Shown here in pieces: positions 9,758-11,656 of a stretch of DNA of 27,402 nt; position 1 is the stretch's first letter; each line of letters begins with the position of its first letter. The translations under genes were made by a program, and so were the position numbers. The notes under the pieces were generated by a model. The model had not been told where the DNA came from. It made no database searches and saw only the letters and a list, made by a program, of their open reading frames with translations. The DNA comes from an uncultured archaeon (GTDB taxonomy: Archaea > Asgardarchaeota > Lokiarchaeia > Sigyniarchaeales > Promethearchaeaceae): contig CAZEPC010000015.1 in assembly GCA_964513765.1 (NCBI GenBank), forward strand, positions 1 to 27,402, given 5' to 3'.

Positions 9758-11656
9758 TTATTTATTCCCTAATTTTTGAGCCATACCTGGGATAATTTCC
9801 AAATATTTTCTCGTGAAAAACAATCCAACCAATTCATCGCATTTTTCCTTAAATATTTGGGTATTAACTCCTTTAAAGTTTTTAAGTTTATCCTCAAATC
9901 TTTTCTGGAATGCCCGCACGAATTGACTGAGTTTATGCCTCAAAATCACCAATTCCCGTTCGATCACCAGTACAAATACCACTTGATCATTTTCATCCCA
10001 CTGAAAGAGTAATTTTTTATTTCCATGATCAATAATTCTTAATTTTTGGGTCTCTCTGGTTATTTCCTGAAGCATAGAGGTTAACCCAATGAGTCCCCCA
10101 GATACTAAATCCGCCGTAACAAACGATGATTCTCCCCTAAAGCTCCGTTCATACAAAAGTAATCCGCTGTTATGGATAACATATAGATGAATAAGGGATC
10201 TTGGCCAGTTTTGTTCCTCGGCGGCGCCAGTCGATTGAATATTTGACATGATAAACAGAGAAATAATACATACAAGAAAAATTATGGAGGAAATAAAATC
10301 CCGAATTTCTGTGAAAAATCGATTTTCAATCTGGGGATAGATTGTTATCAGCTCAGAAATTGCTTGGTCTTTGATAACAGCACCTGTAACTAATCCCATT
10401 ACAATTATTATGAGAAATAAAGTAATTAATCTGCCGTAATATTCAGACCGGCCCAATTCCCCATTGATGAGTGAGATTGAGAGGAATAGGGAAAATACGA
10501 TCGCCATGATGAGAGATAATTGATTTACCGAGTATTGCTCACCGGTTTGAAAAAGCGAAACAAAATTTGAAACCCCAATGGCCAATAAAAGAAAAGACAA
10601 AGTGGTTTTTCTTCCGTAAAAATCAAAAACCAAGCCTATAATGAATGCACCAACGGAAAGATATATGGGACCAGCAATTACAAATTCTCTTTGAACTGTA
10701 AATTCCCTCCCAATTTGCTGAAAAACCAGACTATAGAATTCACTGGGCACCATTAAAGCCACGAGCATGGATATGGTATAAATCACCACCAGATACTTTA
10801 AGATAACTTTATCGTTCTTGAGAAGAAATTTAAAGAAATATTTTCCACCCATTTGGTCCCTTATATCACTACGGATATTTTCCTTTTCAGCATCTTGTAA
10901 TTCAAACAAAGTAAAATAGGTAAAGGTTTTTTCCTCATCTTTTTTTCGATAAAGATAATAGGAGCCCAAAAGAGGGACAACACCAGGTATAACGGCCAAA
11001 AAATCTTCCCTTATAAGAAAAATAATTGCAAGGATATAAAGAAAGTCTAGCACTAATATTAAGGCAATTATCCTCCCTCGTTCAAGCATAGTAGTATAAT
11101 TTATGAATAATACAATTGAAGTAATGAGACAAAAAGTGAATATGATTGCATTGACCGAGAAAATGATTACGGGCATAAGGGGTGCATCGGTGTATATCTG
11201 AATTATGATTCCGACCCCATTCAAAATAGGTCCAACAATATAGAAAACCGAAAGCAAGGGAAATTTCTTTTCAATACGGTCAACAAGAACAGCTGACAAA
11301 GCTATACCAATGATAATTCCAGCTGCTAAGCCACCCCCACCCAGAAATACAGATGTATTAATTAAGTTTCCCGAATAATAGAGGGAGATTGCACCGAGTG
11401 TGGTTGTAGAAAGGGTAATAATCAAGAGAAGAAGAATCTCACCCCTCCTTATTTCAATATCTTTGAAGATTTGGCGATATCCTTCTCCAATTATTTTTTT
11501 CTGAACGAAATTCGTGGTTGTTTCAAATCCATCCTCCAAATCTTTTAGGAAATCTCCCTCATTTTTCGATTCCGTTTCTGGTTTTTTGGAAAGATAATTT
11601 GATTTTTGTTTTTTGTTTGGTTCCTTTTGTTTTGGTTTGTTCTTCTTCTTATCCAT
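9758..11656 (-). CDS. Polytopic (about 12 TM) MFS-like permease with a Lys-rich N-terminus and a C-terminal cytoplasmic roadblock/LC7/MglB-like domain.
   Basis: The N-terminus is MDKKKNKPKQKEPNKKQK…. The MFS motif-A-like loops are 'VLVDRIEKKFPLL' and 'VFDFYGRKTTLS'. The C-terminal roughly 160 aa read 'LIHLYVIHNSGLLLYERSF…ADLVSGGLIGLTSMLQEIT…KLRIIDHGNKKLLFQWDENDQVVFVLVIERE…LVILRHKLSQFVRAFQ', a beta-alpha-beta-beta-alpha pattern typical of roadblock domains. Confidence 0.65.
   Translation of the reverse strand: MDKKKNKPKQKEPNKKQKSNYLSKKPETESKNEGDFLKDLEDGFETTTNFVQKKIIGEGYRQIFKDIEIRRGEILLLLIITLSTTTLGAISLYYSGNLINTSVFLGGGGLAAGIIIGIALSAVLVDRIEKKFPLLSVFYIVGPILNGVGIIIQIYTDAPLMPVIIFSVNAIIFTFCLITSIVLFINYTTMLERGRIIALILVLDFLYILAIIFLIREDFLAVIPGVVPLLGSYYLYRKKDEEKTFTYFTLFELQDAEKENIRSDIRDQMGGKYFFKFLLKNDKVILKYLVVIYTISMLVALMVPSEFYSLVFQQIGREFTVQREFVIAGPIYLSVGAFIIGLVFDFYGRKTTLSFLLLAIGVSNFVSLFQTGEQYSVNQLSLIMAIVFSLFLSISLINGELGRSEYYGRLITLFLIIIVMGLVTGAVIKDQAISELITIYPQIENRFFTEIRDFISSIIFLVCIISLFIMSNIQSTGAAEEQNWPRSLIHLYVIHNSGLLLYERSFRGESSFVTADLVSGGLIGLTSMLQEITRETQKLRIIDHGNKKLLFQWDENDQVVFVLVIERELVILRHKLSQFVRAFQKRFEDKLKNFKGVNTQIFKEKCDELVGLFFTRKYLEIIPGMAQKLGNK

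Follow-up and report, generated by a model that had tools for sequence, protein, structure and literature searches.

A divergent MFS permease ending in a predicted longin domain, and its NPRL2/NPRL3-like operon partner, in Asgard archaea

Contig CAZEPC010000015.1, from an uncultured archaeon, encodes a divergent permease of the major facilitator superfamily (MFS) that ends in a cytoplasmic domain modeled here as a longin, and the gene directly downstream specifies a protein with the predicted build of NPRL2/NPRL3. The window analyzed is this entire contig, 27,402 bp with a G+C content of ~35%, on which the 632-aa permease is recorded. With a probability of roughly 45%, we read the two products as a membrane-anchored heterodimeric platform, in which the longin of the transporter and that of the partner would together couple the state of the transporter to signaling. 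Longins were already known among the eukaryotic signature proteins of Asgard archaea; what is new is that a longin is fused to a permease and that the fusion gene shares a conserved operon with the gene of an NPRL2/3-like protein, and no description of an MFS-longin fusion was found in the literature searched. Three features carry this reading:

9758..11656, minus strand: complete gene (ATG-initiated open reading frame, 632 aa plus stop) for the divergent MFS permease with a predicted C-terminal longin.
9761..10225, minus strand: cytoplasmic juxtamembrane domain, residues 478-632 (core about 487-615), predicted longin.
8617..9672, minus strand: operon partner, NPRL2/NPRL3-like, 351 aa, directly downstream of the transporter gene and on the same strand.

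The 632-aa open reading frame (ORF) has 12 full-length homologs (E 1e-55 to 1e-127, identity 28-41%), and a profile of its C-terminal domain matches 1,164 cluster representatives, so we take it to be a real gene and not a chance ORF. Wherever the source of a full-length homolog is named, it is an Asgard metagenome-assembled genome labeled Promethearchaeota or Thorarchaeota, and the host of the gene is a Lokiarchaeia-type (Promethearchaeota) Asgard archaeon. An earlier reading made from the letters and their translations only (the sequence-only reading) had proposed that the product of this ORF is a 12-helix MFS-type permease fused to a roadblock/LC7-like domain; the ORF is there, and so are the strings it quoted, namely MDKKKNKPKQKEPNKKQK at the N-terminus, VLVDRIEKKF (123-132) and VFDFYGRKTTL (343-353).

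Residues 478-632 are the best conserved part of the transporter and hold most of the family-invariant residues; mean pairwise identity is 53% here, against 31-33% in the transmembrane (TM) halves and 26% in the N-terminal tail. TM12 runs directly into the domain through a conserved EQNWP junction. An AlphaFold2 (AF2) model from an 11-sequence alignment, moderately confident overall (pLDDT 75, pTM 0.72), has, in domain numbering, the elements E11-18, E23-28, H39-55, E62-67, E70-76, E82-88, H93-116 and H122-137 (E, strand; H, helix). This is the order bb-a-bbb-a-a, preceded by a two-turn junction helix alone, and as in longins the five-stranded sheet has alpha1 on one side and alpha2 and alpha3 on the other. 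The solved structures closest to the model are longins (figures per structure: synbindin 11.5, Sec22b 11.3, AP2-sigma 11.0, VAMP7 10.9, SR-alpha SRX 10.8, a Lokiarchaeal longin, 8yqg, 10.4, and Mon1 and Ccz1 about 10). We conclude from the model that the domain is a longin. At the level of sequence the likeness to the TRAPP longins (TRAPPC2/sedlin and TRAPPC4/synbindin) is marginal: among curated longin-type families, Sybindin was hit at E=0.08 by 2 of 11 isolated domains and Fuz_longin_1 at E=8.8e-4 by 1 of 48 family members, neither reaching its curated cut-off, and Pfam scans of these 11 domains and 48 members showed no family that covers the domain. A hidden Markov model (HMM) of the domain gave one hit among PDB sequences, to a WD-repeat protein (E=0.006), which was set aside as spurious. 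In the longin SNAREs (Sec22b, VAMP7, Ykt6) the longin precedes a SNARE motif and a lone TM anchor at the C-terminus, whereas the transporter longin follows 12 TM helices and has no SNARE motif.

The roadblock/LC7 assignment fared less well than the ORF itself. The tail is indeed predicted to be a folded cytoplasmic alpha/beta domain of the roadblock/longin/profilin-like group, as had been proposed, but within that group its modeled fold is that of a longin. In roadblock domains the topology is a-bb-a-bbb(-a) and an N-terminal helix packs on the sheet (PMC10933270); the helices of MglB and its Roadblock/LC7 relatives (Pfam Robl_LC7) are arranged a-bb-a-bbb-a, against bb-a-bbb-a-a in the transporter domain. 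There was also no Pfam match to Robl_LC7, either for the whole protein at E<=1 or for the 11 isolated C-terminal domains at E<=10. We rejected the roadblock identity on these two grounds, and a transporter equipped with a classical MglB-like, Robl-type GTPase regulator is very improbable.

The partner gene, 8617..9672, contains these predicted features:

9295..9672, minus strand: longin domain of the partner, residues 1-126 (AF2 model).
9625..9630, minus strand: Gly15-Pro16, the 'GP motif' in the beta1-beta2 loop of the partner longin (codons GGA CCG).
8737..9294, minus strand: two winged-helix-like modules, residues 127-212 and 213-312 (AF2 model).

A confident AF2 model of the partner (35 sequences, pLDDT 89) consists of the longin (E2-11, E15-22, H31-43, E50-55, E58-67, E70-79, H83-102, H109-125; residues 1-125 in all), the two winged-helix-like modules, whose folded parts are at about 128-209 and 236-309, and then two helices. 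The family is large: a profile search returned 217 matches, the best 120 at E<1e-119, with members uniformly about 360 aa long and all named members Asgard, and the window protein has no Pfam match. When the model was searched with Foldseek, the best ten matches were all NPRL2 or NPRL3 chains of GATOR1. The global TM-score against NPRL2/NPRL3 is 0.27, because the domains are arranged differently in the two. G15-P16 is invariant in 35 of 35 partner sequences; this GP motif is specific to the longins of the type found in GTPase-activating proteins (GAPs), i.e. NPRL2, FLCN, SMCR8 and C9orf72, and also occurs in some Asgard longins (PMC12290439). When the partner profile was aligned by hhalign to human NPRL2 (the sequence used is identical to PDB chain 6ces_N), the best segment, partner 2-54 on NPRL2 7-58, had 35% identity with a non-significant E of 0.16, and is in register with the motif ('LGPK...EDF', partner G15-P16 on NPRL2 G20-P21). 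The transporter longin, aligned to NPRL2 in the same way, gave nothing. We thus describe the partner, on the strength of its model, as NPRL2/NPRL3-shaped, a GP-motif longin followed by two winged helices. It shares with the GATOR1 subunits the overall build of a longin and then winged-helix-type modules, at 351 against 380 aa, as well as the GP motif in the beta1-beta2 loop. In GATOR1, however, the second longin sits on a soluble paralog, whereas here it would be the one on the membrane transporter, and no DEPDC5-like gene was seen here. The family of Asgard longins followed by a small C-terminal domain described by Liu et al. (doi 10.1101/2020.10.19.343400) has the build of the partner, the two being compared by architecture.

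By analogy with PtsG, which sequesters Mlc in E. coli, the partner might be a transcription regulator with DNA-binding winged helices that the transporter longin holds or releases according to transport activity. This is quite unlikely, given that the two modules are near neutral on average (+1.4 and -1.8) and that hydrophobic or acidic residues make up the putative recognition helix (consensus NIDLLLISF). The partner moreover matches NPRL2/NPRL3 over its whole length, and the C-terminal domains of those proteins, in GATOR1 structures, mediate protein-protein contacts.

The census of the pair was made with HMMs of both proteins on loci from an exact look-up, a one-genome-per-species scan and a metagenome scan. 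In about 22 of 24 loci the MFS-longin gene is directly followed by the partner gene, both having the same orientation; the spacer measures -4 to +39 nt in the other loci against 85 nt in the window, and the pairing is kept across transporters that are 28-41% identical. The flanks of the partner gene in the window are as follows:

9673..9757, minus strand: AT-rich spacer of 85 nt between the transporter and partner genes; the sequence, read through, has no oligo-T run.
8018..8590, minus strand: ORF of 190 aa, preceded by a GGAG-like motif and separated by 26 nt from the partner gene upstream of it.

The 190-aa ORF has no Pfam or NCBIfam match. Its homologs (190-196 aa) adjoin the pair in 7 loci, being on the opposite strand in L003 and L005, so this is a recurrent neighbor that is not clearly part of the operon.

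Longins typically act as dimers, e.g. NPRL2-NPRL3, FLCN-FNIP, SMCR8-C9orf72, Mon1-Ccz1 and TRAPPC1-C4, and NPRL2 and NPRL3 heterodimerize through their longins in GATOR1 structures. Because of this habit, longin-longin pairing is the most economical reading of the gene pair. We suggest that the transporter longin would pair with the partner longin, as the conservation of the operon points to, and that this pairing would tether the partner to the membrane beside the cytoplasmic motif-A gating loops of the permease. The transport cycle, or the availability of substrate, might then modulate what the platform binds, such that the module would be a transceptor for the status of nutrients or substrate. 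The client downstream would most likely be a small GTPase (MglA-, Arf- or Rag-like).

Features of the membrane half, which would supply the gating loops of such a platform, are these:

11444..11656, minus strand: N-terminal cytoplasmic tail, residues 1-71, Lys/Glu-rich and weakly conserved (19 Lys+Arg in 71 residues).
10940..11443, minus strand: MFS N-domain, TM1-TM6, residues 72-239 (from hydropathy; the MFS_1 profile aligns here in homologs).
11264..11308, minus strand: N-domain motif A, cytoplasmic loop TM2-TM3, residues 117-131, GIALSAVLVDRIEKK; G117 and D126 are family-invariant, and the loop lies on the Lys/Arg-rich side of the membrane half.
10808..10939, minus strand: central cytoplasmic loop joining the 6-TM halves, residues 240-283 (from hydropathy; charged, 44-50 aa).
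10226..10807, minus strand: MFS C-domain, TM7-TM12, residues 284-477 (from hydropathy; half-repeat MFS_1 alignment in several homologs).
10598..10636, minus strand: C-domain motif A, loop TM8-TM9, residues 341-353, GLVFDFYGRKTTL; G341, D345 and G348 do not vary in the family, and conservation of R349 is 90% or more.

Kyte-Doolittle hydropathy divides the protein into six TM helices (72-239), a charged loop of 44-50 aa, six more TM helices (284-477) and a soluble tail of 155 aa. The segments predicted to be cytoplasmic hold 58 Lys+Arg against 4 in the outside loops, and the topology is therefore N-in/C-in with the tail in the cytoplasm. Pfam MFS_1 is matched by 10 of 13 family members (best E 9.5e-12; bit scores 27-45 around a cut-off of 33.4), one of which also matches Sugar_tr. 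These matches either cover nearly the whole profile or lay the C-half of the protein on the N-half of the profile, which is the known 6+6 pseudo-repeat. Against PDB sequences the family profile gave weak matches, the top ones being MFS proteins (Qdr2 at 0.021, OCT2, SV2A). MFS motif A, G-x-x-x-D-[RK]-x-G-[RK]-[RK], occupies the loop TM2-3 and is often repeated in the loop TM8-9. The copy in the N-half has Glu in place of the second Gly, and that in the C-half, GLVFDFYGRK, is a full match. Also invariant in the family are T188, L191, R193, G194 and R195, an 'ERGR' stretch between TM4 and TM5. Judged by these sequence features, the membrane half is a divergent yet genuine 12-TM MFS protein of 6+6 build. 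The sequence-only reading was thus borne out on the 12-TM MFS-type permease, and its two motif-A-like loops turn out to be at the true motif-A positions, TM2-3 and TM8-9, with D126, G341, D345 and G348 invariant. It had also singled out the Lys-rich N-terminus as atypical, which does not hold up, since this tail is unconserved, variable in length and compositionally biased; a special function for it was rejected, the tail being unconserved and its bias fitting the AT-rich composition of the contig.

It may be asked whether the 12-TM part still transports, or whether it has become a mere membrane anchor or sensor for the longin, the whole being a pure receptor. Such a receptor would fit three observations: conservation is far lower in the TM halves than in the longin, Pfam does not detect the window protein, and other proteins anchor this longin by unrelated segments of 1-2 or 5-7 TM helices. 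Yet motif A, a part of the conformational cycle of MFS proteins, is invariant in both halves, as are T188, L191, R193, G194 and R195, which points to selection on a working alternating-access machine, and we regard a receptor without transport as highly doubtful.

The longin domain recurs in many other proteins. A search of 1.84 billion cluster representatives with its profile, run without a word index, gave 1,164 matches at E<=1e-3 and 359 at E<=1e-10, with the domain nearly always at the extreme C-terminus and all named sources Asgard (Promethearchaeota and Thor-, Hel- and Hodarchaeota). Among the best 160 instances, 66 have 9-12 TM helices, 36 have 4-8 and 25 have 1-3, the rest being 15 long soluble and 18 short or stand-alone proteins; in most cases the domain directly succeeds the final TM helix of a protein that is MFS-size or has 5-7 TM helices. 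The fusion had been called an unusual architecture in the sequence-only reading, but with 66 of the 160 best representatives in the 9-12-TM class it is not rare within the lineage, and among Lokiarchaeia-type Asgards it is common. The long soluble carriers are histidine kinases of the type PAS-(PAS)-HisKA-HATPase_c, with the longin after the ATPase, and one of these also has a receiver domain. Single carriers include one with a CN-hydrolase and one of 2,638 aa. Across all classes the domain keeps the signature W484, Y492, G498, F506, L517, G520-G521-x-x-G524, E531, I542-D543-H544, K548, K575, F583 and F614. NPRL2-like longins fused to two-component domains have been described in Asgards by Liu et al. 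2020/2021 (doi 10.1101/2020.10.19.343400), and 'NPRL2-like longin domain' proteins are listed for Lokiarchaeum ossiferum (PMC9834061). The NPRL2-like longin clusters of Asgard orthologous genes (asCOGs) of Liu et al. resemble the present family in being Asgard-restricted and expanded, and fusions to PAS, HisKA and HATPase_c occur in both.

We note some peculiar carriers of the domain: (i) P0143 (2,638 aa), P0114 (1,392 aa), P0160 (1,550 aa) and P0111 (1,046 aa) have the longin near the C-terminus after one TM helix, and P0143 has in addition an EMC7-type beta-sandwich and a winged helix-turn-helix behind the longin. (ii) The complete Helarchaeota-labeled gene L011 4001-5107 (P0074) encodes 368 aa, 7 TM helices plus longin, and its membrane part has no Pfam match. 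This 7-TM class (about 340-385 aa, 36 of the 160 best matches) is a second common membrane anchor of the longin. (iii) In L012 (4001-7194), an 807-aa PAS-PAS-HisKA protein ends in the longin; 30 nt behind its gene a HisKA-HATPase_c gene of its own (246 aa) begins, and three low-molecular-weight phosphatase (LMWPc) genes stand in tandem ahead of the longin gene. The longin thus has what looks like a split phosphorelay, or an unusual one, around it.

Three signs give the domain the look of a signaling module: it outconserves the transporter halves, it ends kinases and other membrane proteins, and Liu et al. have described NPRL2-like longins fused to two-component domains. The suggestion of the sequence-only reading that the permease doubles as a signaling scaffold is strengthened by the occurrence of the same domain at the end of histidine kinases and by the conserved operon partner, and stays at the level of plausible.

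The longin might instead serve the permease itself, as an intramolecular regulatory or oligomerization domain that gates or dimerizes it, the NPRL-like neighbor being functionally independent. Such arrangements are familiar from the STAS domain of SLC26/SulP carriers and the CBS domains of ClC channels. The SLC26/SulP carriers offer an analogy of design, a secondary transporter with a conserved cytoplasmic alpha/beta domain at its C-terminus that regulates and binds partners; their 7+7 inverted repeat and STAS fold are, however, unrelated to the MFS 6+6 and longin folds. Longins can homodimerize, and the Lokiarchaeal longin structure 8yqg is annotated as a dimer; the longin follows TM12 directly, through the conserved EQNWP junction; and the partner occurs without the transporter in two loci, L009 and L010. 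Against this, the two genes adjoin in about 22 of 24 loci and are only a very short spacer apart, which speaks for a link in function between them, and the same domain is present on soluble histidine kinases, where the gating of a transporter is excluded. We consider the intramolecular reading rather unlikely.

Several observations weigh against the heterodimeric platform that we prefer. The pairing of genes is not absolute: no partner accompanies the transporter domain in L007 or in the fragment L032, and L009 (a complete 2.27-Mb chromosome) and L010 keep the partner in the same syntenic neighborhood without an MFS-longin gene, so that the partner is not strictly dependent on the transporter. 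The model of the C-terminal domain is only moderately confident, with domain residues 31-60 at pLDDT 47-61. The MFS assignment is drawn from sequence features, and the window transporter itself has no MFS, Robl_LC7 or longin match in Pfam/NCBIfam at E<=1. The partner shows no significant match to NPR2/NPR3 in Pfam (E<=10, 35 members) or PDB sequences, nor in the hhalign comparison above, and hhalign found no relationship between the two longin families, which are therefore not recent paralogs. In manual alignment, neither the partner longin nor the transporter longin has an Arg at the position of NPRL2 Arg78. Finally, a GTPase gene is found beside or near the partner in 2 loci only; it is not a conserved neighbor, and there is none in the window.

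Those two loci that hold the partner alone, L009 (partner at 4001-5086) and L010 (partner at 4001-5092), share a gene order of a VTT_dom/DedA-type gene, ORFs of 57 and 82-86 aa, the partner, an ORF of ~250 aa and then Fer4/CCG genes. Since this neighborhood has the partner but no MFS-longin gene, it seems that an older gene neighborhood, centered on the partner, either gained the transporter gene by insertion or lost it. In the loci examined, the 7-TM and histidine-kinase versions of the longin have no partner gene as neighbor.

The GTPases in question were found by BLAST, as a strict G1/G3/G4 regular expression misses the MglA type, whose G3 is TVAGQ. L015 5685-6377 and L010 6000-6692, both on the minus strand, encode 230-aa small GTPases of MglA type (Pfam Arf, 1.8e-11) that are 51% identical to each other and have G1 GMAGSGKT/GMYASGKT, G3 'TVAGQ' and G4 NKQD. 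In L015 this gene and the partner gene are convergent, with 107 nt between them; in L010 the GTPase gene lies two genes away from the partner gene. As to how the platform would act on such a client, the finger turn of NPRL2 (beta4-beta5, HKKYSRN, with Arg78) corresponds in the manual alignment to KKKQNN in the window partner and to FEGE in the family consensus, and the absence of the finger makes a classical arginine-finger GAP mechanism of NPRL2 type unlikely.

The remainder of the window holds other genes, some of them shared with the syntenic contig L001. Upstream of the transporter, on the same strand and 124 nt away, 11781..13286 (minus) encodes 501 aa, with TM segments at the N-terminus and a metallophosphoesterase domain of the calcineurin-like type (E 2.1e-19); this gene is no neighbor of the pair in the other loci examined. 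Convergent to the operon, 4307..8005 (plus) encodes a 1,232-aa SNF2-family helicase with a weak RapA_C-like region, whose counterpart in L001 lies at 8839-12507. Two tandem paralogous MFS_1 transporters occupy 136..1983 and 2002..4260 (both plus; E 2.8e-20 and 1.7e-40); the GTG start listed for the first, at 136, falls at about residue 139 of the 752-aa paralog, so this ORF appears truncated or mis-started at its 5' end. Both carry a highly charged C-terminal extension of about 270 aa, helical or coiled-coil-looking, which has no longin domain and is unrelated to it, so that the contig holds another 'MFS plus soluble tail' design besides the first; a 755-aa ortholog in L001 has a faint CC_Bre1 match. 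The helicase, the tandem MFS and an H+-pyrophosphatase (window 23745..25862) also occur in L001, which is therefore a contig from a close relative. An EncFtn-like encapsulated ferritin (13414..13770, plus, E 1.3e-40) and an encapsulin shell protein (13849..14661, plus, Linocin_M18, E 7.8e-82) form an iron-storage nanocompartment operon.

The logic proposed for the Asgard pair has counterparts at the lysosome, where SLC38A9 with Ragulator-Rag, and PQLC2 with C9orf72-SMCR8-WDR41, are cases of a carrier that recruits roadblock/longin GTPase regulators and reports nutrient status. These carrier-signaling assemblies are partly summarized in PMC10933270 and PMC12290439. In those assemblies the longin or roadblock proteins are polypeptides of their own that bind the carrier non-covalently, whereas in the Asgard pair one longin is covalently fused to the carrier. 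One may go further and see in the pair an archaeal forerunner of the transporter-coupled nutrient signaling of eukaryotes, that is, a longin heterodimer like GATOR1 or folliculin whose regulation of an MglA-, Arf- or Rag-like GTPase depends on substrate flux. We hold this to be unlikely; if it were true, the link between a 'nitrogen permease regulator' and a permease would predate eukaryogenesis.

Asgard archaea encode dozens of longin, roadblock and small-GTPase proteins, rarely in informative operons (PMC10933270), which is one reason why little is known of their roles. The MFS-longin/partner pair gives Asgard longins a concrete and conserved physical context, and a juxtamembrane longin family of at least 1,164 sequence clusters, for which there is no Pfam model, is now defined. 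The pair is also tractable, because both soluble domains are small and well predicted. If the two longins do pair, this would be the first archaeal longin platform anchored on a transporter, with eukaryotic parallels at the lysosome in GATOR1, folliculin and C9orf72-SMCR8, and, being made up of two proteins only, it would offer a simple system in which to ask how longin heterodimers became a means of coupling nutrient transport to GTPase signaling.

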